From: Octopus vulgaris
Taxonomy: Eukaryota
Reading direction: 5' to 3'
Assembly (NCBI GenBank): GCA_951406725.2
Contig: OX597815.1
Location: 89,404,001 to 89,468,000 of the forward strand
DNA length: 64,000 nucleotides
Shown in pieces: positions 10,761-64,000 of this stretch (position 1 is the stretch's first letter; the number at the start of each line of letters is the position of its first letter). The notes under the pieces were generated by a model. That model did no database searches. It worked only from the letters and a program-made list of their open reading frames with translations, and was not told where the DNA came from. Both the position numbers and the translations under genes were made by a program.

Positions 10761-11078
10761 ACATGAGCATGCCATCTCAGTGAGGTGTTTGGAAGCGTTC
10801 ACTATTATAATTTTTTACATTAGGGGCAGAGCCGAAACATACCCTAAAGTTATTTCTATTGAATGATCCAGTATTCTAACAAGACATCAATCTTGAGTTG
10901 GCTATATAGACTACCTAATATTTAACAGATAAAATGCAGGAATTAATTTAGCTAATTTTCTTTTCATATATTATGGTATTTTAGAAATATAGTCATCAAA
11001 ATATATGTTCTATGAATAAGTAAATAGTCTTCAACATCTAACGCTGACTGGTCATCCAACATTGACCGGTTCTTTTAA

Positions 11079-11654
11079 GGCGGCGAGCTGGCAGAAACGT
11101 TAGCACGCCGGGCGAAATGCGTATTTCGTCTGCCGCTACGTTCTGAGTTCAAATTCCGCCGAGGTCGACTTTGACTTTCATCCTTCCGAGGTCGATTAAA
11201 TAAGTATCAGTTACGCACTGGGGTCGATGTAACGACTTAATCCGTTTGTCTGTCCTTGTTTGTCCCCTCTGTGTGTAGCTCCTTGTGGGTAGTAAAGAAA
11301 TAAGTATTTCGTCTGCCGCTACGTTCTGAGTTCAAATTCCGCCGAGGTTCACTTTGACTTTCATCCTTTCGGGGTCGATTGAATAAATACAAGTTACGCA
11401 CTGGGGTCGATATAATCGACTTAATCCGTTTGTCTGTCCTTGTTTGTCCTCTCTGTGTTTAGCTCCTTGTGGGTAGTAAAGAAATAGGTATTCCGTCTGT
11501 CTTTACGTACTGAGTTCAAATTCCACTGAAGTCGACTTTGCCTTTCATCTTTTCGGGGTCGCTAAATTAAGTACTAGTTGCGTACTGAGGTCGATTTAAT
11601 CGATTGGCACTCTACCGCAAAATTTCAGGCCGTGTGCCTCGAATAGAAACGAAT
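11079..11654 (+). mobile_element. tRNA-derived SINE (second family) as a head-to-tail trimer of ~183-bp units with TSD
   Basis: Head GGCGGCGAGCTGGCAGAAACGTTAGC; B-box-like GAGTTCAAATTCC in units starting 11121, 11304 and 11488; ATTGACCGGTT at 11061-11071 and 11655-11665. Confidence 0.9.
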
Positions 11655-13156
11655 ATTGACCGGTTATTTAGTAATTAACGATACTTTAAACAGAACAATG
11701 CTATCGTATTTTCATTGACCAGTACTTGTCATTAACTGAGTAATTCCATTATCAGCACTATAAATTTTGAAAACAAATTGTGGCTATATGCAGTAACAAC
11801 AGGAAAACCCTTAAAGTTCATAAAAGTAAAGTTTTTTCTATGGTTATGTCAGTAAATTATAACCTAGAGATTTGTAGATAATCTTTTTTTCCTGCTATAG
11901 ATAGAAATGATAATTTCAAATTATTAGTTACCTGTTCTGAATAACTAAATGTATTCAGAGATTTCGTTGCATATCTTTTTTAAAATGGCAACCAAACTTA
12001 TTCCAAATGATTTGAACTGACGGCATGTGAAATAGCAATGAACGATGCTCCATTTCAGCCTTGAACTTCGTTGACTAAACATGAATAATATAGTACTGTA
12101 AGTTTAATGAATCAAATTAAATTATTATTTTAAATAGTATGAAATATGTAATCAGAACGTTAAATGAAATAATAATTTAAATATTCACTAAGTTGTTGAA
12201 GTTTACAAAATATACATTATGGCATGCCCACAATACCTCAGATGCACAGACTTTTAGAAGTAACATTCATATCTTTCTTTTGGCTACAATTAAATCAACA
12301 CTTGCACGTCATACCTGCAGTCTATTTAAACCAATTGTGTTCTGTATTAAGCATTCCATTCAATCCGTTGAACTATTCCACTAAACAAGTATATTGAATT
12401 TGCTATTGTAATTCGTGCATGTTGTACTATGTATGAAACAGATTATTAACTTCACTTTGAAATTTATTGGAAATGCATTTACGCACATAGTGACGTGTAA
12501 TTAATGAATTGTTCGTCCGCAGTATGGCATAATCTTATTTACGTGATCGTTATGAACAGCTGCTGTTTCTACATTAGTAAAAATTCGCTGTGAATTATTC
12601 ATATCCATATATTATGGACGAGATTAAATTGAGAAAAAAGAGCATCCCAGTTAATTGAAAAAAGTATTGTGGGTAATTATAACGCCTTTACTCGGCCTAC
12701 AAACTATACAACATTACCCATATCATTCCTCTTTCAAAGATTTGATATGATTGCTAAGCTTTTGCATTTTAAGTCTTCATTTCCCTACTTTATTCGTTAT
12801 CATTTTCTGCCAACATTAATACATCGTTTTGCTTTATATAGTATTAAAGTGTTCCTTTCCTAAGTGTTCAGTTAAAATTCTTCGGATGGCATTAACATAC
12901 TTTTCTCGCTGGTAAGGTGAAATATTTTAAGATTGAAAAAGAAATTCGAGCGTTTGCTTTGGCCCAATTTTAAAACGTCTTCCATCCCTAAGTGCGATGT
13001 GGGTTCAAATACCATGCGCAGCTTTCTACAACCCAAAACTTTTTTTATCCAATATTTACAAGCTATCATTTATAGTCTATCTACTTCTAAATCCTACGTT
13101 CCAAGAAAGAGTTTTATATATTTTTTTCAGAATTTGTGTGAATATGTATAGAATAA

Positions 13157-14198
13157 TATATCAGTTGAATAAAGTTAAAATATGGTCTGGTTTTCACGTT
13201 TTTTTTATAGTCCTTTAACATTAAAAATTATTTTGTAATGTTCAAGAACTTCAATTAGCGCTTTTATACGTTCGTAGTAATCAACAGTGTTGAGTTCTTG
13301 ACAACTATAGTACCCTTTAGAACGCTCCAACAAGCCGAGTTTTTAGAATTAGTTTTGACTAATTCACGTGCAGCTTCAACGTCACGTTTTTCCGAGCGTA
13401 CTGATATTTGTACTTACAGGAAAGGCAACCACATAACCTAAAGAAACTATTAACAAATGCAAAATTCAACATGAACAAACAGGATAAAACACAGTATCCA
13501 AGTGTAATCATAACAGATGTGGAACGTGTCAATACATGCATACTGGTAGATCCATGAGAAGAAAAAATGGACAGGTTTTCGCAAAGGCAGATATGAACTG
13601 CAAAAGCAGAAATTTGATCTACTGCATTAACTGCCCCAATTGCGAAGAACTATATCTAGGCGAGATAGGGAATACACTATCGGAACGATCAAGAGCCCAC
13701 AGACAACAAAGCCGGAATACCAATTTTCGCCAAATTCCATTGAGCGAAGAGATATAAACATGTGGTCAGAAGATGTTTCTAAATTTTCCTTTCCACAAGC
13801 TACATGACACAAGTGAAGTTGGAAGAAAGAAAAAAGAAAAACGGTTTATTAAAATGTTCAAACCTTTTATGAATGGAAATAACAACAATAATATAACAAC
13901 CGGTTAATGATGTGGACTGAAAATATATCTTTAACATATGGATAGAAACAAATTACAGAATATCGGTGCGCCTGGCAAACCGTATTCCAAAAATTCATCC
14001 TGTTGGGGCGTTCTAAGAGGTACTACAATTGTCAAGATCTCAACTGTTAGTTGAACACGTTTTGAAATCTGATGATTATTAGGAACGTATAGAAGCTTTA
14101 TGAACATTACAAAATATTAATGTTAAAATACCATAATACAATCCTATAATAAAAAACGTGAAACCCAGACCACGTTTTAACATTATTCAACTGATATA
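13157..14198 (+). mobile_element. Penelope-like element 3' fragment: Zn-linker/GIY-YIG flanked by inverted terminal repeats (pLTRs)
   Basis: ORF has MNCKSRNLIYCINCPNCEELYLGEIGNTLSERSRAHRQQ; 13157-13349 is a diverged reverse complement of 13984-14198. Confidence 0.85.
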
Positions 14199-14612: not shown

Positions 14613-14964
14613 ATATATACACGCACACGTAGAGAATAGCATTAGTAGATACTTTGGTAAGTATTTTCTCTACAAAATGCCATTCTCTCTCTCTCCTTCT
14701 TCCCTTCTTTCCTGAGCGTCCAATGATACTTTATTTGTTCCACGTCCTTGCGTTGTTGTGTTTTTGTTTTGTTTTCTTGTTTGGATTAACTTTATATATT
14801 TATATATATATATATATACAACATACACACTTACAGACATACACACATATCATATGTATGTATCGATAAATACACACAGATATATACGTATGTATGTGCA
14901 CGCGTATGAATGGTTTTTGTTAGAATTTTTAATACGGCCTTCCATACCTTATATAATGTACCTA

Positions 14965-15245
14965 AGGCGGCGAGCTGACTGAAACGTTAGCACGCCGGAC
15001 GAAGTGCTTAGCCGTATATCGTCTGCGGCTACGTTCTGAGTTCAAATTCCGCCGAGGTCAACTTTGCTTTTCATCCTTTCGGGGTCGATTAAATAAGTAA
15101 CAGTTACGCACTGGGATCGATATGATCGACTTAATCCGTTTGTCTGTCCTTGTTTATCCCCTCTGCGTGTAGCCCCTTGTGGGTAGTAAAGAAATAGGTA
15201 GTTCGTCTGTCTTTACGTTCAAATTCCGCCGAGGTTGACTTTCCC
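14965..15245 (+). mobile_element. SINE of the 11079 family with a partial second unit
   Basis: GGCGGCGAGCTG head, full unit, then restart GTTCGTCTGTCTTTACGTTCAAATTCCGCCGAGG at ~15200. Confidence 0.88.
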
Positions 15246-15308
15246 TTTTTATTCGGAATTCTTTTATTTTCAGTCTCTAGTCTTTCTTTCTTTCTCTCTT
15301 TCTTTCTC

Positions 15309-19914: not shown

Positions 19915-20180
19915 CGAGTCTAAGTAAGGTTGTTTATGGATGGTCAGCAGTCACCTATGCATACGAGCTTCCCCTCTACACTGATGTTATTGAAGGGAAA
20001 AGCAAAGAACGATACAACTCGTACTAGTGACATCGCAACTCATTTCTACAGCTGATTGAACAGCAGCAACATGAAATAAAGTGTCTTGCTCAAGAACACA
20101 ACACACAGTTCGATCCGGGAATCGAACTCACTACCTCATGAGTGTGAGCTTGACGTTCTAACAAGTTTGCCATGCGCCTT
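19915..20180 (-). mobile_element. tRNA-derived SINE (third family)
   Basis: Minus strand GGCGCATGGC head, GAGTTCGATTCCCGG B-box-like, then TGTGTTCTTGAGCAAGACACTTTATTTCA body. Confidence 0.7.
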
Positions 20181-20184
20181 CGCC

Positions 20185-21125
20185 AACCCTATCAAATCCC
20201 TAATCGGTAGAACCTACTCTTTTAGTAGAACCACTTGTACTGATAGGAAGTGGATTTTATGTAGATTTAGCCCACAGACAAGCTGTAAAGCTAGGAATGT
20301 AGTCTATAGTATAAGATGTACAGAGGGACGGTGCAGTAACAAGACAAGGACATACGTAGGGGAGACAGCACGGAGAATAGAAGAGCGGGTAAATGAGCGT
20401 TGGAGGGAACCTAAGAAAGAGAAGAGCTCATCGGTTCTGTACCAGCAAGCCGAGCAGGAACACGGGGGCTCACTCAACAATATAGAATTTAAAATCTTGT
20501 CCACACATAGAACAGACGCAACGTTTAGACAAATTACGGAAGCTACACACATAATAGAAGATAAACCTAGCCTGAATAGGAAACTAGAATGGACACTAGC
20601 ACCCCTCCCCCCCCCAACATACCACAACCTCTGACAGAATGGGACCCTCATAAACGGATAATAATATGAATATAATACAATACACAGATAAAGAAATGGA
20701 ATTAAAAAAACTATATACATTAACAAAATAAATCAAATTAAATTAATACAAAAATAGAAAGAAAAGAAGAAGTAAGTACATATAAACAAATGAATAAAAA
20801 AATAAAAGTAAATTAAATGAACGTGTATAAACAGGGGATACGGATAATGCAGGCACATCCCCACCCACATACACTTGCTAAACTTAGATATATGTTTAGG
20901 GATATACGCATGCGTAAATAAAGTCACATCAATAGGAATACAAAATGGCAGACTATTGGTAAGGAGAGACACACAAAACAGAAAGAAGAAAGCAAAGGAC
21001 CACTGATAAGGTCGCAGAAATGTGACAAAAGAAATACAATTAATATAAAATAAAGCTGAAGCAAGTGAACACTAAATATATAGTGCGTGTGTTTTTATTA
21101 GCTAAGCTGACAAACATGACCATCT
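20185..21125 (+). mobile_element. Penelope-like element 3' end: GIY-YIG endonuclease plus 3' repeat
   Basis: ORF 20086-20634 has SCKARNVVYSIRC..C..TYVGETARRIEERVNE...RQITEATHIIEDKPSLN; partial hammerhead-like CUGAUAA-G-GUCGCA-GAAA-UGUGAC at 21003-21026. Confidence 0.85.
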
Positions 21126-21133
21126 CCAAATAC

Positions 21134-21325
21134 AACGTTAGCACGCCGGGTAAATGCTTAACGGTATTTCGTCTGTCTTTACGTTCTGAGTTCTAATTCC
21201 GCCGAGGCACATTTTGCCTTCCATCCTTTAGTGGTCGATAAATTAAGTGCCAGTAGTGTATTGGGGTCGATGTAATGACTGCCCCACCCCCAAATTTCGG
21301 GCCTTGTCCCTAGAGCAGAAAAGAA
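21134..21325 (+). mobile_element. SINE of the 11079 family, single unit
   Basis: AACGTTAGCACGCCGGG...GAGTTCTAATTCCGCCGAGG...GTCGATAAATTAAGT. Confidence 0.85.
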
Positions 21326-23464
21326 TATATATGAGTGTGTGAGTATGTGTGTGTGTGTATGTTACTATGTGTTTTTGTACGTATGCATGTATGTGTGCGT
21401 GGTTTGTGTATGTGTGTGTGTGTGTGTGTGTGAATATGTCGTACGGACGAGGATTTGTATCATTGGGTGTTAATTCTTACTGCGTAATTATTGTTATATA
21501 GAATGTCCAAAAGGGAACATACATTTATTTCTTGATTATGTTGTGAAACTTTAAGAAAACTATGGATTTCTCTGCACAAGGTGACACATACGTATACTCA
21601 CATATGTGTACAAATATATGTATACGTGTGTTTGTGTTCGAATGTAAATTTATGTTGAGATCTCTCTGTTTATCTATCTGTCTGTCTGTCTATCTATCTC
21701 TCTATCTATGTAGCTATCTAACTATATGTATATATACATACATACACATTTGCATTCCTACATGTACATAATTTTTCAAGGAACTTTCATCGGCAGCATG
21801 GCGCGATATTAAATACAAAATTTTATCTATTACTCTTTCGAATGTCCTCACATGCATTCAGTTACATCCACTTAATTTTTCCCTATTCATACTTCTATTT
21901 TTTAATGTTACTATATCTTTATATATGTTGCTTCTCTCTCTGTACCATTGTTATTCTTTTTTTTTCTCTGCATCTCACTGTGTAAGTATACATTAGAATG
22001 TGTCGAATTCGTTCTGAGTCTGGTAAGATTCTTAAATTCCAACTTTCTAAAATAATCTGGTAAGATAAGCGTTGACTCGAATAAATACATAGCGCGTACG
22101 AAAAATAAATAGGCAAATGATCGACAAACAATTAGTGGTGCCAGAAATTCGTTTATAGTAATTATTAAATATCTATGCTCAAGTTATAAAAGGAAGATAG
22201 CAAATAGTCACAGCTGTTTGAAAGATTCTCTCACTGGCGAATGTTATTGTGTTTGGAAACACGGGAGTAGTACACAAAGTTTCTGAACTATAGAGGAGAT
22301 TTCGGCGGATTCAGCATGGTAAATTTCAATTTTGTTATGCATCCCAATATCTATACTGTTACATATTTTACTTAATGGCTTCAGCAACAGCAAATGCATT
22401 TAAATACATACATATTCAACATATATAAGTCTGTCTGTATTTCGGACAAATTCAAAACTGTTTATATATTTCAGTTCGGTCTAGCTTATCTTTATTCCAA
22501 GAAAAATATATATGATATATGCTTGACTATCATCTTTGCTCATATACAAGTGAATGATCGTTGCGTTCTCGTCAAGTTGGGGAATGGTGACAGTTAACAA
22601 CACTATAGAAATGACAGGTTTAGTGTTTCAGTGAAGTGTTTCACCACCATCGATGTATATTTCAATCGAAATTAAATCTGCACCTGCTGCTTTAATGACG
22701 AAAATTGGACTTATAAACTCAGTGCTATAAAGAGGACGACGGAATTATCAAGATACAATCTGCCCAGGTAGATACAATCTGCCCAACAGAATGCTTATTT
22801 ATGTTGGCTGACCTGTTCAAGACTATTCCTGCTCAGTCAATCTTACATGGAATGCTTATTTGTGTTTCGTAATTTGTGTTTCTTAATTTTCCATCTGCTA
22901 CGTAGCTAGGTAATATCCTCATGTAAAAGTCACATTAATATATATAAATTAAGGAAATAAAAAAACATCTCATTAGGCTTCTATTCATATCTACTACGGA
23001 ATTATCCCTCCGACAAAATAATAAATATAGATTATGATTAATTAATCTAAACAATAAGTTGCTTATACTAATTAATTTATATAAATAAGAGAGTTGTATT
23101 GAAGATGTAATTGTTTATATATTTTTTGCTGCAGTCATACGTAGGAGAAGACTTAGATACTTAATTATATACATTTATAAATACACATATATCTTACTCT
23201 TGTATGTTATGGTGACAAGCGACTATCATGGACATGGAAGGGTTTCAATTGGTACGTGTTTGAGTTGTAATGAAATAAATTTCGATGGTTGTGGATTGCA
23301 CTTACTTGATTGTATCATCTGTTAAAGTGATTTTGTTGTTTTTTTAATGGTAATTGATGTATGATTCAATAGTTAACGTTCACGCTCGTAATACCAAGAC
23401 ATTTGAATTACTTTTTACAACCCAGGCGTCCTTTTGCACGGAATTACGTCTTTTTCTAGACAAT

Positions 23465-45534: not shown

Positions 45535-46956
45535 TTATTTCCTGTTACATTTCTTGCTGTGGCTGTGTAGTCCTATCCTGGACAAACACTCCCTCTGGCA
45601 GGTACTGCAAATGTAGCGAAGACTGTTCCTGGCTGATTGTAGTGCCATGGTCTCTTGTTTATGTCTCTTCCTTTCTTTCCATTTCTCCTCTCTCTTTCTG
45701 TCACTCCTCTGTATACCCTCTTTTACTGTACGTCGCCATTCTCCACGGTTGCCGGCGACTGCCTCCCAACCGCTAATGTTGATGTTGCAGGCCTTCATAT
45801 CCCTTTTGCAAACATCCTTGTAACGCAAGATCGGTCTACCCACAGACCTAGTACCCCTAGCAAGCTCTCCGTAGAGTATGTCCTTGGGGATTCTGCCATC
45901 TTTCATACGGCTAACATGCCCAAGCCATCTCATACGTCTTTGTGTGAGGAGTGCAAACATGCTTGGTATTCCTGCTTGCCTGAGGACATCTTTGTTGGGG
46001 ATATGATTCTGCCATTTGATGTGGAGGATTTTTCGGAGGCAGCGCAGGTGAAAGATGTTTAGGCGACGCTCTTGGCGTGTGTATAGCGTCCAGGTCTCGC
46101 TTCCATACAGTAGAGTGCTGAGTATACATGCCTGGTAGATCTTCATTTTTGTGGTCTTGGTCAGCTTATTGTTGTCCCAAGCCCGTTTGGAGAGTTGGGC
46201 CATCGCAGCAGCTGCCTTGCCAATGCGTATATTGAGCTCAGCGTCAAGGGATAGGTTGTAGGTGACGGTAGAGCCCAGATAGGTAAACTTCTCCACCTCT
46301 TGTAATCTGTGGTCTCCAATATGTATGTTTGGGATGTCCGATGTAGCCTGGCCCATGATGTTGGTCTTCTTAAGGCTGATAGCTAAGCCAAAGTCGTTAC
46401 ATGCTTGCTCAAAACAGTTAATGAGCCTTTGGAGGGCTTCTTCTGTGTGTGTTACCAGAGCGGCATCATCAGCAAATAACATCTCCTTGATCAGGACGTT
46501 TCTGATTTTGGTCTTGGCACGCAGGCGCGAGAGATTGAACAGTTTCCCGTCACTTCTACTGTGCAGAAACACTCCATCATCTGATGTCTGAAAGGCATGT
46601 GACAGCAAGAGTGAGAAGAAGATGCCAAACAATGTAGGAGCGAGGACACAGCCTTGCTTTACCCCGTTTTTTATTTGGAAGGCGGCTGATGTTGAACCGT
46701 TGTGCTGTATGGTGCCTTGCATGTCATCATGGAAAGACTTGATGATCCTCAGCAGCTTTGGTGGACATCCGATTTTTTGGAGCTGGAGGAAGAGGCCTGT
46801 TCTGCTTACCGAGTCAAAAGCCTTTGTTAGATCAATGAAGGCCATATATAATGGCATTTTCTGCTCTCTGGACTTCTCCTGAAGTTGGCGTATGGAGAAT
46901 ATCATATCGATAGTTGATCTGCTTCTTCTAAAGCCACACTGCGATTCCGGATAGAT
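45535..46956 (-). CDS. RTE ORF C-terminal part: reverse transcriptase and terminal Cys/His finger
   Basis: IYPESQCGFR, FIDLTKAFDSV, GVKQGCVLAPTLF, LFADD, FTYLGS, LLYGSETW, RWLGHV, CSTCQRECLSRIGLHSHSKKC; same frame as the upstream part. Confidence 0.95.
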   Translation of the reverse strand: MYPESQCGFRRSRSTIDMIFSIRQLQEKSREQKMPLYMAFIDLTKAFDSVSRTGLFLQLQKIGCPPKLLRIIKSFHDDMQGTIQHNGSTSAAFQIKNGVKQGCVLAPTLFGIFFSLLLSHAFQTSDDGVFLHSRSDGKLFNLSRLRAKTKIRNVLIKEMLFADDAALVTHTEEALQRLINCFEQACNDFGLAISLKKTNIMGQATSDIPNIHIGDHRLQEVEKFTYLGSTVTYNLSLDAELNIRIGKAAAAMAQLSKRAWDNNKLTKTTKMKIYQACILSTLLYGSETWTLYTRQERRLNIFHLRCLRKILHIKWQNHIPNKDVLRQAGIPSMFALLTQRRMRWLGHVSRMKDGRIPKDILYGELARGTRSVGRPILRYKDVCKRDMKACNINISGWEAVAGNRGEWRRTVKEGIQRSDRKREEKWKERKRHKQETMALQSARNSLRYICSTCQRECLSRIGLHSHSKKCNRK

Positions 46957-48579
46957 TCAAGAAGCAAGTAGTTGTAGCCTGGCCAGGATAACGCGGGCAA
47001 AGGTCTTTCCAACAGTGCTTAGAAGGGATATACCACGGTAATTGTTACAATCACCACGGTCACCTTTGTTTTTGTAGAGCGTAATGATGTTGGCATCCCG
47101 CATATCCTGAGGGACTGTACCCTCTTCCCAGCACTGACACAGAAGCTCATGAAGGTGCCGAAGCAGGATGGTGTTTTTGCCGGCTTTGATGATCTCTGAG
47201 GGGATGCCGTCTTTTCCCGGAGCCTTATTTCTTGCTAGGGAGTCAACAGCCTTGGTGAGCTCTGCTATAGATGGCGGACTGTCAAGTTCGCACATGACTG
47301 GCAAGATCTTGACACTCTCGACTGCAGCCTCAGCCACTGTGGTCTCCCGTGAGTAGAGATCCTGGTAGTGCTCCACCCATCTATTCATTTGCTTGCCTTG
47401 ATCCCTGATGAGATCTCCAGTAGTTGATTTCAGAGGGGCTGACTTGGTTGCGGATGGACCGAGGGCCTTCTTCAAACCAGCATACATCCCACGGGTGTCG
47501 CCCCTGTCAGCAGCTGACTGGATACTCTGACAGATTTCCTGCCAATACCTATTTGCACAGCATCTGGCTGTCAGTTGGGTTTTATTTCGTGCCTTTCTGA
47601 GTTCTTCGAGTGACTTTGTAGAAGAGTCACTTTTGTATTGCACCAGAGCTGCACGCTTTGCTTCGATAACTGGCTCCAGCTCTGAGAGCCCAGCATTGAA
47701 CCAATCTGGGTTTTGCCTTTCTCTCATGCCGAAAGTATCCAATGATGTCGTATACAAGGCTTCCCTGATATAGTCCCACCTACTTTCAGCAGAGGAGGTT
47801 GGGCAGCTACTGAGGGCAACCTTGATAGAAGCAGCAAAACATTTTCGCAGTGTAGGGTCCGAGGTTCTGGCGGTGTTGATGCGTGGTCGGCCCACTTTCT
47901 TGGAGCGATAGACTTTTTTAGGGAGAACCCTCACCCTGCTTCTAATTAGTGAGTGGTCTGTGTCACAATCCGCACTGTGGTAACTGCGGGTCAATAGAGT
48001 GGAACTCAGAAAGGATCTCCGTGTAATGATGAGATCCAGCTGATGCCAGTGGTGAGATCTTGGATGTCTCCAGGATGCCTTGTGGGATGGCTTGCTGGTG
48101 AAGAATGTGTTTGTGATGCACAGGATGTGGTATGTGCAGAATTCGAGTAGTCTCTGACCATTGTCATTCATGTTGCCAATACCAAAGTGTCCAACACAAA
48201 TGGGCCACGAATCATGGTCAGATCCCACGCGAGCGTTAAAATCCCCTAGAAGGTAGATATTTTCAGTCGTTGGTATATTTTCTAGGACACAGTTGATATC
48301 TTTGTAGAACTGGTCCTTGGTCTCCTCTGAGCTGTAGATAGTGGGAGCATAGATGCTGAGTAGATGTACTGAGCCAGAAGAAGTCGAGAGGCGCAGTGAG
48401 AGGATACGCTCAGTGCCTCCCGATGGTGGTTCTATTGAGGAGAGTAGTGAGTTTCTCACTGCAAAGCCAACGCCATGTTGACGAGTTTCTTCTGGATCTC
48501 TTCCCTGCCAAAAGAAGGTGAAGTCCTGCTCTTTGAGTCTGCCGTTTGAGGGAAGTCTTGTCTCCTGCAGCCCTGCAGC
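46957..48579 (-). CDS. RTE ORF N-terminal part: APE endonuclease and start of RT
   Basis: LQETRL, HGVGFAV, SIYAPT, LLGDFNARVG, WHQLDLII, DCDTDHSL, KAPGKDGIP, NYRGISLLS; ends at an in-frame TGA at 46957-46959. Confidence 0.93.
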   Translation of the reverse strand, partial: AAGLQETRLPSNGRLKEQDFTFFWQGRDPEETRQHGVGFAVRNSLLSSIEPPSGGTERILSLRLSTSSGSVHLLSIYAPTIYSSEETKDQFYKDINCVLENIPTTENIYLLGDFNARVGSDHDSWPICVGHFGIGNMNDNGQRLLEFCTYHILCITNTFFTSKPSHKASWRHPRSHHWHQLDLIITRRSFLSSTLLTRSYHSADCDTDHSLIRSRVRVLPKKVYRSKKVGRPRINTARTSDPTLRKCFAASIKVALSSCPTSSAESRWDYIREALYTTSLDTFGMRERQNPDWFNAGLSELEPVIEAKRAALVQYKSDSSTKSLEELRKARNKTQLTARCCANRYWQEICQSIQSAADRGDTRGMYAGLKKALGPSATKSAPLKSTTGDLIRDQGKQMNRWVEHYQDLYSRETTVAEAAVESVKILPVMCELDSPPSIAELTKAVDSLARNKAPGKDGIPSEIIKAGKNTILLRHLHELLCQCWEEGTVPQDMRDANIITLYKNKGDRGDCNNYRGISLLSTVGKTFARVILARLQLLAS

Positions 48580-48893
48580 CCATAATTAGTTCATAACTAA
48601 TGCACATTTAGCTTTCTACCTCTAGAAACGATACTATATTAATTCTTTCCAGATTACTATTCATAGAGACATATATACAGTAGATTAGTATAGAAACTAG
48701 TATCTTTCATAAGCTTAATTCCACAAATTGCAAAATATGAACACGTTATTTAAAAATTAATAAATTTGAAGTGTGTTTGCTTAGTTAAGTATTTAAAACT
48801 AATAAAAGAAAAGATCGTGTAATTTCATGTTACAATCTAATCACATGAACAATTAAATATATTTTACTGTCGAATAAAAATGGTTAATATATA

Positions 48894-53229: not shown

Positions 53230-55435
53230 TTCATTTACAATCTTATAAAAATATAATATAATATAATATACTATTTAAATGAAAGAATATTAAATGTTCA
53301 TTCTGACTGAACTAGAACTTTCATGCCTTAAACTATGCAATCTTCAGGTTCATGTAGTAGTGGTTTTACAAATTACAACTGTAGTGAGATGGCTAAAATG
53401 TGTGCCTTAAATGCATTTGTACAGGCTCCAGAATGTTAAATTTTGCAAACTGTGTTATGACCAATCAATGTGTGGCTTCATTAAATTACTTAAGTTGATT
53501 AGTGTTTGGTTTAGGCGTCACGGTTTGTTAAACATGTGCAGTGACCTGTATTTTGATCCTAGCCAAAGCAGTAAGCGTTTGGCTATTTTTAGAAATGTAA
53601 CATTTTCTAGTGATTTTTACATTTCAGTTATCATCATTACCGTTATCGTCACCTTTATTATTTTTATCATTGTTGTTGGTGGTGGTGGTAGCAGCTGTGG
53701 TAATGGAACTTTAACTCTAAATAAGATTATTTCTACTGACCGTTCTTTTAGCTAGTATTTTCCTGTTATCATCATAATGAGAACCTTTAGTATTGTTTTT
53801 GTTGTAAGCTGTAGAAGTAGTACCTCTAAGTATTATTATTATTCTTTATTTAGCTTGTGTTGGAATTTATCAATAAAGTTCTTTTCTTTGACATTTCTTA
53901 CGATTTCACTTAGACTGTATAGTTTGTAGAATGGAAATGTTATAAATATTTCTAGATGGTTACTCAGAGGTATCTGACGGACATCTGGATCTCTAATTTG
54001 CTGTCGGTACACACGTGAACGTTCTGATAGAACATTTCCAGTCTGACCCACATAGCTTCTTCAGAATTCGAGCATTTGAGGCAGTAAAATAAAAAGAAAT
54101 GATTTTGCAATTCATATTTGCGTTTGTGAATATTTTTCGGTTGTTTTGTGTTCATATATTTGGCAGTATGTATGAATTGGCATGTGCCACAGCGGCTGTC
54201 ATTGCATTCTGATACAGTGAATGACTGATCTTTGTTGCTAAGGTCAAAATGTTGTCTTTGTTAATGATGTTTTAATAATATTTCAAGCTGTCTTTTACTA
54301 AGAACTATAAGCCAATCCGATATTATATGTTTCCATTCATTACTTTGGTAGGTTTACTTTGGCAATGTTGAAGATATTCTGGTGACATGGGTTGTGTGTC
54401 ACTATAAATGGTATGACTTGTTCCTGTTTTCCTCTTCTTTGGGTCGTCCCCAGTTGTTCTATGGGTATTTTTATAGCCTGCTATGCCATTTTCTAAAAGT
54501 GGAGACAGGTAAATTTGTTTGAGCAAAAATTTTCTTAGTTCTGTTATGCGTTTGTTCAAAAAGAATGGTACACATTCTTCTGGCTAGGCTGTATGGGATG
54601 TTGCGCTTTGTATGTGGTGGATGACACGACTTAAAGTTCAGGTATTGATGTGTGTCCGTGTGTTTATAGTATATCTGTGGTAATGACGGTGTCCTTTTTA
54701 ATTACTATTATATCTAGGAGTGGTAATTTGGTACTACTCATCTCCTTTGTAATTTGGTGAGATGCGTATAGGTTGCTCAGGAGTATATTGAACTTCCAGA
54801 ATATTTAGTGATTCTATCCAGATTATGAAGCAGTCGTCAAGATAACTCTTCCATGCCTTTTCACTATAATTTCTAAATTCAGTGCTATAGTTTTTTTCCT
54901 GTTTCTTATTAGAGTTGTTCTAAATATCCCATTACAGAATTCTCGTAAACAGGCGCAAACCTTGTTCCCATCACCGTTCCTTTAATTTGAATGTAATTAT
55001 TTCTATTAAAGAAGAAGGTGTTGTTTTCTTGAATACGACTGACTGTGTCTAATATAAATGGCACTCTGAATCTCTTGGGAATCTCTTCACTATGTTTTTC
55101 TACCAAGTATTTAATTAGCTTTATTCCTAAATCCTGTGGAATATTGGTGTAAAGGATTAAAACATCAAAACTAAGTAAAAGTGGATTTCTTTCTGTTGTT
55201 TTGTGAAGGTGGGGCAGGAAGTCGATATCATTCCTGATGAAACTGGTTATGTAGGTGCATAGTGATTTCAAAACAATGTCGATAAAATTGCTTAGACGGT
55301 CGGTAGGACATGTTCTACCAGCAATAATAGGTATAAGTTTTAAGTCTTTTGTATATAGTGATTTTATGTACTCACTTTCTTTTTCTTTTACAGCATGCTG
55401 AATATATTTTGACTTATGTATTTTCGGTAGGCAGT
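53230..55435 (-). mobile_element. Penelope-like element relic: RT, GIY-YIG and 3' repeat with hammerhead
   Basis: YCLPKIHKS, PIIAG..CPTDRLSNFIDIVLK, SFDVLILYTNIP, YIQIKGTVMGTRFAPVY, WKSYLDDCFIIW and GQTGNVLSERSRVYRQQIRD; endonuclease resembles that of 13157-14198. Confidence 0.92.
53308..53352 (-). ncRNA. Minimal type-I hammerhead ribozyme motif
   Basis: UGAAC-CUGAAGA-U-UGC..GCA-U-GAAA-G-UU-C-UA-GUUCA; 5-bp stem I; canonical CUGANGA and GAAA; downstream of and on the same strand as the PLE ORF. Confidence 0.72.
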
Positions 55436-55449
55436 ATTCCTCATACAAG

Positions 55450-56028
55450 ACTAGAAAGGGTCGAATTTTATTCCAAGTCATCAATGACAAGAGGAAAGAC
55501 CGTGCTACGAAGCTTTTGAACAAACTCCAGCATCCCCTTCAGAGGAACGTGCTTTGGTTTTTCTCCGACGAGGAAAATTTCTGCCAGGATCAGGTGGTGA
55601 ACACATAGAGCAACCGTTGGCTTGTCGTATCTCCAAAACCTACTGAGGGTGATGAATATCAGACATCCAGTCAAATCAAGGTGTTTGGAGTGATCACTAG
55701 TGATGGCGGCGCTATGCTTCCATTCATCTTCCCACACGGCCTCAGACTCAACACAGAGGCCTACATCAAGTGTCTGGAGGAGGTAGTGTTGCCCTGGGTC
55801 AAGTGAGTGGCTGCTGGAAGACACTATGTCTGGCAATGGGACTCTGCACCATTCCATACAATCAGGATAACCCAGTCATGGCTATCAAACAATTTCTACG
55901 ACCACATTACTCCTAACATCTCTCCACCCAACTTCAATGACTGCAACCTCATTGATTATTACGTGAGGCGCAGTTGAGCGAGAGACCAGCAAAGTTACTT
56001 GTAACATCAAAGATGAACTGAAAGTAAG
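55450..56028 (+). mobile_element. Tc1/mariner-superfamily DD37D (maT-like) transposase fragment
   Basis: LWFFSDEENF, VFGVITSDG, YVWQWDSAPFH then 37 residues to the Asp of DCNLIDYYV; stops present. Confidence 0.88.
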
Positions 56029-61649: not shown

Positions 61650-62095
61650 TATATATATATATATATACACACACAAACACACACACACACACATACACAC
61701 ACACACTCACACACTCTCACACACACATATATATATATATATATTTCAGTATGTGTGTGTTTATATAATTTCTTAGTTCAGCTCTCTCTCTATATATGTA
61801 TATATGTTTGTGAGACTATATGTATTTACATATGCCAAGTCATCTTATTGGATACGTGTATTTTGTAATCAAGTAATGTAAGACCTCATACTCACAGACA
61901 TACTTGGCAATTTACCTTATACCATCTACAAAAATATAAGAGCACTTGGGAACAACAAGGATGTGTATAAACTACAATAACTCTAGACAAATTATTAATC
62001 CATGGACCAATAATTACTTGAGTGTATCAGTTATAATAACTTTCGTACTCGAAACGTTACTGAAACATCTAATTAGCTTTGAGAATAACGAGAAT

Positions 62096-62127
<32 letters not shown>

Positions 62128-62241
62128 ATATATATATATATACTTAATTATACTTAATTATATCAAAGGGAAATGGAAATTAATTTAAATTATAATTTCC
62201 AGTGGCTTAACGTGTAAAAGTTTAGTCCAAAGACTATGTAT

Positions 62242-63001
62242 TAGCCATAAAATACAGTGTATATTTAAACACATAAGGAATCCACTCGTGGGATTCAACA
62301 CAATAGAAAGCTAAAAAGCTAGAAAGCTATAGAACAGCTAGGTTCTATAACCACAAGATATAGATATAAAATTCGATAGGAACGAAATGAAAAAATAAAA
62401 ACATTTTGCCCTCTAGTTTCCTGGACCAATTGGTTTCTGATTTTAGTTTAGCAAGCAAATAACCCTTACACGCTAGGTAAAATCGTCTTCAGCAGGTACA
62501 CCCTAGATAAATATATAAACACGAGGGGATCAAACTATGTGCCTCTTCTTTATACATCCTATTATCACTGGAAATGATAGTTTTAATTATTTTCCATTTC
62601 CCTTTGATATAATTAAGTATTGTAAGTTTTTGGATAATTTTCGGTTTTTAAATGTCGGCATTTTTTTATTGCCGGCGAAGGGTTGCGTCTGCGCAGTAGA
62701 ATTTGAAAACTTTAGTATATATAAACAAGAGACACATAGTTTGATCGCCTCGTGTTTATATATTTATCTAAGGTTGGAGACGATTTCACCTGGCGGGTAA
62801 AGGTTATTTGCTTGCTAAACTAAAATCAGAAACCAATTGGTCCAGGAAACTAGATGTTAAAATGTTTTTATTTTTTCATTTCGTTCCTGTCGAAATTAAT
62901 CCCTAATTTTGTGGTTATAGAACCTAGCTGTTCTTTCTAGCGTGTTGAATCCCACGAGTGGATTCCTTATATGTTTAAATGTACACTGCATTTTATGACT
63001 A
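62242..63001. mobile_element. ~760-bp fold-back element: ~300-bp inverted arms, ~160-bp spacer, hammerhead in each arm
   Basis: 62242-62557 is a diverged reverse complement of 62717-63001 (TAAGGAATCCACTCGTGGGATTCAACAC / GTGTTGAATCCCACGAGTGGATTCCTTA); no meaningful ORF. Confidence 0.92.
62420..62496 (-). ncRNA. Type-I hammerhead ribozyme motif (best in window)
   Basis: CCUG-CUGAAGA-C-GAUUUUA..UAAAAUC-A-GAAA-CC-AAUU-GG-UC-CAGG; all three stems pair; GUC cleavage triplet; palindromic stem III; sister copy at 62774-62846 (+) has a damaged core. Confidence 0.8.
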
Positions 63002-63564
63002 TATATATATATATCTGTACAAATATGCCTGAATACATGTATACACGCTCACACATATACTATGGCCGATATAAATTTGGGATATTTGTTTGGTTCTTGG
63101 TTTTCCCCCTGTTACGCTTTACATGAACAATGAGAGAGTGAGAGTAGGAGATTCAAAGAAACAAGAGACCCAAGATGAGTGCATGTGCTGGGCTTGGTGT
63201 CAGCAGTAGTAGTAGGAGGAGGAGGAGAGAGATAGATAGAGAGAGAGAAATAGAGAGAAAGAGCGAGAGAGAGAGTAAATTAAAGAGTAGTTATCAGAAA
63301 CTGTTCAAATTAGAAGTTTTCCTTTACGAGAATTTACCTTAATTTTTTGAAATTAGTATTCATTTCAACATTTTGTACATGCTCCATGAAATTTGATAAA
63401 GTTAAATTATATCTGACAGTACATCTATTAGACTAGCTAGCTGCCTCTCTTCCTGTCTCATTCATTCATTTTATTTCTCTCACATACACGCATGCTGGTA
63501 TGAATGTACGACCCCCACACACAGACGCACAACCACACAGACACACACATATACATATATATAG

Positions 63565-63625
<61 letters not shown>

Positions 63626-63714
63626 ATAAGGGTGGAAAGGAACACACGAGTTGATATATATGAAAAAACAAGTCAAAAATAGAAAATGCTAAGATGATTT
63701 TATAGTGAATCTTT

Positions 63715-63752
63715 CAGTACCGGTTTCGGTCATTTTGAGACCTTTTCAACTG
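63715..63752 (-). ncRNA. Hammerhead-like motif with UUGAAAA core variant
   Basis: CAG-UUGAAAA-GGUC-UCAAAAU-GACC-GAAA-CCGG-UA-CUG. Confidence 0.55.
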
Positions 63753-64000
63753 TAACGATAAAATAATTAAATTTAGAAAAATTGGAAAAAAAGTTTTTTT
63801 AAAAGAATATTTCTGTAGTAGTGTTCAGATATAAGTAGCATTCTGCCTTTCTCTGACTCCCTTGTTTGCACTTGTGTGTTCGAGGTCGTACTCGAAACGT
63901 TACTGAAACATCTAATTAGCTTTGAGAATAACGAGAATATATATATATATAATATATATATACTATAGAAGTGGAACCGCAAAGGATGGAACCAAACAGC

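Follow-up and report, generated by a model that had tools for sequence, protein, structure and literature searches.

Two 5'-truncated copies of a non-coding hammerhead repeat lie head to head between (TA)n tracts in Octopus vulgaris

RESULTS

Genomic context

The window, that is, the whole 64-kb stretch of Octopus vulgaris DNA that was analyzed, is composed of AT-rich, microsatellite-rich animal DNA containing many interspersed repeats. A near-intact LINE, which we take to be of the RTE type, is present at 45535-48585 on the minus strand, with endonuclease and reverse transcriptase (RT) frames and one stop between them. The homologues of a Penelope-type RT remnant at 54909-55538 (minus strand; 17 matches among 427 candidates) are RT proteins of 365 to 800 residues, several of which contain GIY-YIG, and a GIY-YIG endonuclease-like remnant is located at 20080-20634 (plus strand; E = 2e-5). 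Comparison with Pfam afforded no direct match for either remnant, both being assigned through their homologues, and both are unlinked to the repeat family described below. Further repeats include a tandem array at 11076-11656 (period of about 183 bp) with dispersed copies at 14963-15248 and 21134-21328, in which no match to the type-I hammerhead descriptor was found, and an old inverted pair (13157-13357 and 13976-14198), the halves of which are 70% alike and about 620 bp apart.

Structure of the element

The initial annotation described a fold-back element at 62242-63001 with inverted arms of about 300 bp, a spacer of about 160 bp, and no open reading frame (ORF). In a BLAST comparison of the arms (62235-62561 and 62713-63009), 271 of the 328 columns were alike and 32 were gap columns. 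Global alignment of 62242-62561 with 62713-63001 gave 265 like columns out of 289 (91.7%), the right arm displaying four gaps of 16, 6, 1, and 8 nt relative to the left arm. The region between the arms spans 151 nt (62562-62712). Arms and spacer were close to their initial description. A second inverted pair (62150-62204 and 62566-62620; 51 of 55 positions alike) extends the element leftward to 62150, giving a full span of 62150-63001.

The element was divided into segments A (62566-62620), B (62621-62712), and C (62713-63001) on the plus strand and x (62241-62205) on the minus strand. The plus strand of the element reads A-B-C and the minus strand reads C-x-A, both arms being oriented outward from the center, as previously noted. 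This order of segments shows the left and right copies to be parts of a single non-coding unit in circular permutation, each reading outward. Closed as a circle, the unit would comprise 473 nt, or 481 nt with the 8 nt that are absent from the right hammerhead core.

The left copy (62150-62561, minus strand; 412 nt), delineated by alignment and family context, is 5' truncated at 62561, reads C, x, and A, and stops at the far 3' end of the unit. Its final 92 nt (62150-62241; x and A) form a one-sided, tail-like extension past the end point of the right copy, and other copies end at both places. The right copy (62566-63001, plus strand; 436 nt), delineated by alignment and by the A-B and B-C continuity of other copies, is 5' truncated at 62566, reads A, B, and C, and stops at the near 3' end. 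The two copies are separated by a head-to-head turn of 4 nt (62562-62565) that is unlike either side of the unit on comparison with the loose-end consensus. The copies end 92 nt apart on the unit, at 62150 and 63001, both within (TA)n. In the left (TA)n tract (62088-62149), 10 nt of the element's terminus are repeated in tandem at 62140-62149, and the right tract (63000-63014) was recognized in the window and in a contig of sequencing run X1. Any target duplication is hidden within these flanking TA tracts. The left tract is shared with a stub (62043-62123) that is 96% identical to a second stub at 63886-63967; each runs from a GAAAC box into terminal (TA)n, and they are probably the 3' ends of another hammerhead-bearing family.

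An assembly fold-back artifact was rejected, since the arms differ at 8% of columns, contain four indels, and end differently, and since an X1 contig that crosses the right end of the element (62972-63194) matches the window with no difference. A MITE or DNA transposon was also rejected: the 55-bp inverted pair is one segment of the unit, found once in each of the opposed copies, and there is no correspondence between the outer ends.

Three ATG frames of at least 30 codons overlap the element. The longest (62537-62800, plus strand; 87 codons) begins in the antisense arm, runs across the turn, and has no Pfam match, in agreement with the annotated lack of an ORF. The element contains no RT-GIY-YIG ORF between terminal repeats, and the ORF and Pfam checks revealed no ORF remnant in the unit. 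The sequence GTAAGT at 62622 could denote an intron in B; the spliced joint was absent among 12 joints, and one contig of run X16 crosses B unspliced. The GC content is 0.317 over 62001-64000. Self-pairing gave z scores of -3.08 for the right copy (0 of 100 shuffles) and of -1.73 for the left copy (6 of 100 shuffles).

Hammerhead motifs

A type-I hammerhead motif was identified at 62420-62496 on the minus strand by descriptor match, alignment, and folding, its cleavage being predicted only. As initially described, this left-arm motif is near canonical: the core boxes CUGANGA, GAAA, and UH are present, and helices I to III follow the type-I order. It is composed of a 4-bp helix I, a CUGAAGA/GAAA core, a helix II of 17 bp in the left copy, and a palindromic helix III carrying a 10-nt palindrome. 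This was the sole type-I descriptor match on both strands of the window, against a background, established with 100 locally shuffled windows, of 0.04 loose matches per window and none with a palindromic helix III. Cleavage is predicted to occur after the GUC triplet, between 62424 and 62423. An extra nucleotide is present between A9 and G10.1; this position (62485) is C in the window and A in 42% (X1) and 27% (X2) of the depth in the family. The G10.1-C11.1 pair is present (62484/62439), but A62438 stands between C11.1 and G12, a non-canonical feature that is equally readable as a C.A or an A.A mismatch at the base of helix II.

Folded alone, 62420-62496 adopts the hammerhead topology as its minimum-energy structure, with probabilities of 0.76 to 0.80, 0.98 to 0.99, and 0.90 for helices I, II, and III, respectively. 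The stability of this fold is no greater than that of shuffled sequences (z = -0.79), and the Rfam hammerhead models, proposed in the initial annotation as a check of the motif, gave no match to it even at E values up to 10. For two copies of the motif, the best fold is a double hammerhead (-42.4 kcal/mol, versus -31.2 kcal/mol for two monomers). When the left copy is folded in its entirety, helix I should rarely form (predicted P of about 0.004). In a read-through hairpin transcript, 69 of the 77 hammerhead nucleotides are predicted to pair with the other arm, and all tested helix probabilities are 0.0. The rarity of helix I in the left copy and the burial of the motif in the hairpin transcript make a working ribozyme from this locus unlikely.

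The right-arm counterpart (62769-62846, plus strand), characterized by alignment and folding, is a damaged copy. It lacks 8 nt equal to 62492-62499, which correspond to the 5' strand of helix I plus C3, and its A6 is changed to G. The claim of a hammerhead in each arm therefore held for the left arm and was overstated for the right. This damage is confined to the window copy, the family keeping helix I and the core. As modeled, any activity of the hammerhead would probably stem from dimers within head-to-tail transcripts made from source copies. No pile-up of 5' ends was visible at the predicted cut site among the contigs listed.

A second, unrelated minimal type-I hammerhead motif is located at 63710-63757 on the minus strand. 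It displays the U3-A8 core variant, a G10.1-C11.1 pair, a GUA triplet, and a helix III with a 4-nt palindrome, and it weakly matches the Rfam model HH9 (19.4 bits; E = 0.3). Folded alone, it does not take a hammerhead shape.

Copies of the unit in sequencing runs

Other copies were sought at 80% likeness in the contigs of four public DNA runs (X1, X2, X4, and X5). The search for runs gave 21, the best two of which share 0.40 and 0.38 of the sampled words. The arms and the spacer alike were matched by 2181, 2476, 2831, and 1702 contigs in the four DNA runs. The summed depth in X1, which is no copy number, ranged from 2,187 to 175,658 over the element, compared to 26.5 to 52.4 on the flanks. The left flank (61900-62087) is covered only in X1, at a depth of 26.5, which is half of the right-flank depth, and is absent in X2, X4, and X5; the locus may differ between individuals, this hole in the coverage proving nothing by itself. 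Contigs on the unit were also found in X13 (6 contigs) and X16 (9 contigs), which are guessed to be RNA runs, may be DNA, and provide no expression evidence. Exact-pattern scans of metagenome contigs and of viral contigs gave no match.

All four seams between segments run on along one strand in other copies. C-x continues on one strand in another copy (X5 record 25). For x-A, the loose-end consensus before 62566 is x (16 contigs in X1 and 19 in X2), the commonest neighbor, and A-B is continuous in X1 records. For B-C, opposite-strand joints (62558-62563/62699-62712) occur in 8 contigs from three runs, and contig pieces 62591-62766, 62643-62837, and 62687-62876 also span the seam. A direct B-C junction is present not only in the window but also in several further copies, across all four DNA runs. 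That the spacer belongs to the repeat had escaped the initial annotation; A and B are continuous with C and x in other copies, and the spacer is repeated in the runs because it is part of the linear unit. The seams suggest a self-closing, ORF-free unit of about 480 nt, which resembles an ordinary head-to-tail retrozyme unit rather than an inverted counterpart of one. Neither a whole unit nor two units or two hammerheads in tandem were found within one contig of the runs. An ORF-bearing parent with like ends is possible, since the closure is deduced from overlapping seams in short contigs and since the B-C loose-end consensus agreement is only 0.6.

This low agreement is also what one would expect if the copies were terminal-repeat stubs of an autonomous Penelope-like element, the 480-nt closure coming from a few internally deleted copies and no self-standing retrozyme family existing. 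Head-to-head stubs with opposite-strand hammerheads 100 to 700 bp apart are described for Schistosoma in the available part of the report by Cervera and De la Pena (PMC4209133), and the X1 depth is greatest at the 3' end of C, as in truncated retroelements. Stubs are difficult to reconcile with the direct B-C junction seen here and in several further copies from all four DNA runs, with the presence of x before A in the commonest loose end, and with a unit devoid of any ORF remnant. We consider this explanation unlikely and favor copies of a non-coding unit.

The depth profile revealed where such copies end. In X1, the depth drops twelve-fold across about 62230 (from 175,658 to 14,460), and TA-like loose ends were found before 62235 in X5 and X4. 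The depth halves across 62614-62624 (from 55,010 to 26,668), and at 62617 the letter is A in roughly half of the coverage. The unit therefore has two favored 3' termini, separated by about 90 nt. By analogy, these two ends and the one-sided extension resemble the Penelope tail.

Head-to-head turns

In the four-run comparison, 10 of the 15 joints listed were head to head, leading from an antisense left arm into a sense copy. Each of these was at a different pair of places, with one contig per run, and their depths were near those of the flanks (37 to 85 in X1, X2, and X5; 5 to 15 in X4). Four opposite-strand arm switches and one within-copy skip were left out of this count. In a second set, 4 of 12 joints were head to head, two within-arm skips being left out. 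Altogether, at least 11 distinct other turns with known intervening letters were found, none of which is the 62561/62566 turn of the window. The latter was crossed by no piece among the 29 contigs listed, with X1 covered to about 80%.

These observations bear on the initial proposal of a mobile fold-back family equipped with ribozymes, in which the arms, spacer, and turn would move together as an inverted counterpart of retrozymes. The initial annotation had itself stated that a different inversion point in each copy would point to one-off insertions, and differing inversion points are what was found: the sequence before 62566 is usually same-strand x, and the other turns lie at different points, with one contig per run each. 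The arms and the spacer are all repeated in the runs, one X1 contig contains a nearby joint (62540/62565, the closest found, the letters between being not known), and a small family could exist beyond the contigs listed. Against such a family, the hammerhead would, according to the fold predictions, be masked in a hairpin transcript, and the right hammerhead is broken in the window copy only, the family keeping helix I and the core. Thus, the turn point varies from copy to copy and the hairpin itself is not a mobile family, an idea to which we now give hardly any credence. The Penelope link and the one-off head-to-head insertion, which the initial annotation had also offered, are supported.

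Age and common origin of the two arms

Across 344 aligned columns, the arms show 28 differences. A family letter was available for 21 of these, and in all but one of the 21 the majority letter is retained by one of the arms, the departures from the majority being private to the left arm in 12 cases and to the right arm in 8. Four minority letters are common to both arms (62192/62578, 62159/62611, 62456/62810, and 62464/62802). The simplest reading of these letters would be a single template lineage followed by about 4% decay per arm. The locus is a dead, old insertion.

The 28 differences would also fit two independent insertions of one family, the later one landing in or alongside the 5' end of the earlier one and, by chance, head to head with it. 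Penelope-like elements often land within or adjacent to older copies, according to the available text of a review (PMC6765202), other stubs are also present in this TA hot spot, and the common minority letters, which argue for a shared template, could also stem from two insertions of one subfamily. Two events would not explain why the TA tract is absent at the turn, though present at both outer ends, or why head-to-head joints recur at many loci. We regard two independent events as very unlikely and retain a single insertion.

Variation of the hammerhead across the family

The complete variant table of X1 and X2 contained no variant at or above 12% at 62420-62454 or 62493-62496. The former interval includes the 3' strand of helix I, the triplet, helix III, the GAAA box, and the extra A62438. 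The substitutions C3 to U and G8 to A were found at like shares (10% and 6%, respectively, in X1; 26% and 22% in X2). These shares, though unphased, are as would be expected for the U3-A8 variant reported in the available part of PMC4209133; one loose-end consensus pairs U3 with G8. Based on the variant tables rather than on an alignment, the majority letters of the family give Watson-Crick pairs at three helix II positions (62456, 62465, and 62470) where the pairing is otherwise weak or mismatched, the majority letter at 62479 removes one pair beside the internal loop of helix II, and a common minor letter at 62474 breaks a helix II pair with no partner change listed. Loose ends at 62452-62462 in contigs of X2, X13, and X16 represent a sister subfamily with a like 3' half of the hammerhead and a different outer helix II, which explains the drop in depth inside helix II.

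DISCUSSION

We hold it to be likely that this locus consists of two 5'-truncated copies of an abundant non-coding hammerhead repeat, laid head to head between (TA)n tracts in one old insertion by a Penelope-type RT and endonuclease acting in trans. The unit (473 to 481 nt) is inferred to be a retrozyme-like, non-autonomous Penelope-type RNA. In the proposed mechanism, a Penelope-type protein would bind the unit RNA in trans and cut both strands of a TA tract. Each cut end would then prime reverse transcription, starting at either of two fixed sites inside the RNA, and use of the near site on one side and of the far site on the other would generate the one-sided extension. The two cDNAs would converge as they are extended, terminate at random positions, and become joined head to head, thereby producing outward-reading arms and a variable turn. 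Exact twin priming was rejected as a description of this locus because the two pieces fail to meet end to end on a single RNA; that scheme would leave out 184 nt of x-A-B.

The sequence located 5' of the predicted cut site amounts to 138 nt and 277 nt in the two copies. Both copies therefore run past this site, suggesting that the template would have been an uncut RNA or a re-ligated or circular RNA rather than a linear cut-to-cut monomer. A tentative model, which we regard as possible though doubtful, is that the unit of about 480 nt would be a circle-forming retrozyme with an active hammerhead, atypical in its long helix II and in the mismatch at the base of that helix, copied in trans by a Penelope RT/endonuclease dimer from both cut TA strands, at two sites about 90 nt apart and through the re-ligated cut site. 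If this were true, head-to-head pairs would be a routine footprint identifying the enzyme that moves animal retrozymes. RNA circles have been proposed for Penelope-like elements (PMC4209133) and shown for retrozymes (PMC7229834), as stated in the available parts of these papers, and cleavage by hammerhead dimers was described by Lunse et al. (as cited in the available text of the review PMC6765202).

The layout of the locus is already published for Penelope-like elements. According to the accessible parts of Craig et al. 2021 (PMC8557442) and Arkhipova et al. 2013 (PMC3846280), insertions of these elements combine an inverted 5'-truncated copy, a one-sided tail of 30 to 40 bp, and a bias for (TA)n. 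The octopus element shares with the endonuclease-positive members the head-to-head repeats, the extension at one end, the (TA)n that hides a duplication, and a hammerhead in the repeat. Unlike them, it contains no RT-GIY-YIG ORF, its extension is 92 nt long instead of 30 to 40 nt, and each of its arms is nearly a whole unit rather than a short terminal repeat.

The PAc Poseidon protein provides a biochemical parallel. In vitro, as reported in the available part of Frangieh et al. 2024 (PMC11167929), both DNA strands are cut and extended, two internal start sites are used, and uncut RNA is the main template. An AT-rich DNA target and two start sites bounding the tail would be common to this system and to the mechanism proposed for the octopus locus. 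The lizard element is autonomous and acts in cis, whereas the octopus steps are deduced for a non-coding passenger from the shape of the insertion alone.

The hammerhead can be compared to the minimal type-I motifs of Penelope-like elements in the available text of Cervera and De la Pena 2014 (PMC4209133), where opposite-strand pairs 100 to 700 bp apart are on record. The short helix I, the extra nucleotide after A9, and the dimer-suited palindromic helix III are shared. The octopus motif differs by a helix II of 16 to 17 bp with an internal loop, in comparison to 7 to 8 bp in Schistosoma, by the invariant A between C11.1 and G12, and by a 3-bp helix III. In the available part of Cervera and de la Pena 2020 (PMC7229834), the axolotl retrozyme HHR_Amex2 has a mismatch at the base of helix II and still cleaves.

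The unit itself resembles the metazoan non-LTR retrozymes described in the accessible portions of PMC7229834 and of Li, Clavereau and Pollet 2026 (bioRxiv 10.64898/2026.07.22.740005), which are likewise protein free, low in GC (<50%), and high in copy number, with one type-I hammerhead and a head-to-tail joining that the seams suggest for the octopus unit. It is longer (473 to 481 nt versus 150 to 450 bp), has a much longer helix II, and, unlike retrozyme arrays, is present at this locus as a head-to-head pair of partial units. The word "inverted" does not occur in the available main text of PMC7229834. The literature search found no report on this octopus family or on head-to-head retrozyme insertions, and none joining "retrozyme" with "head-to-head" or "non-autonomous Penelope" with "pLTR."

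Animal retrozymes have been proposed to be non-autonomous Penelope derivatives (available text of bioRxiv 10.64898/2026.07.22.740005), and the role of Penelope in moving them has so far been proposed from co-occurrence and sequence kinship. In its mode of insertion the octopus locus resembles a Penelope-type element, without being an autonomous one, and its unit has the look of a non-LTR retrozyme. A non-coding unit bearing the Penelope footprint, that is, the inversion, two fixed ends, and the TA target, would lend anatomical support to that role, and the octopus unit could serve directly as template in the in vitro assay already in print.
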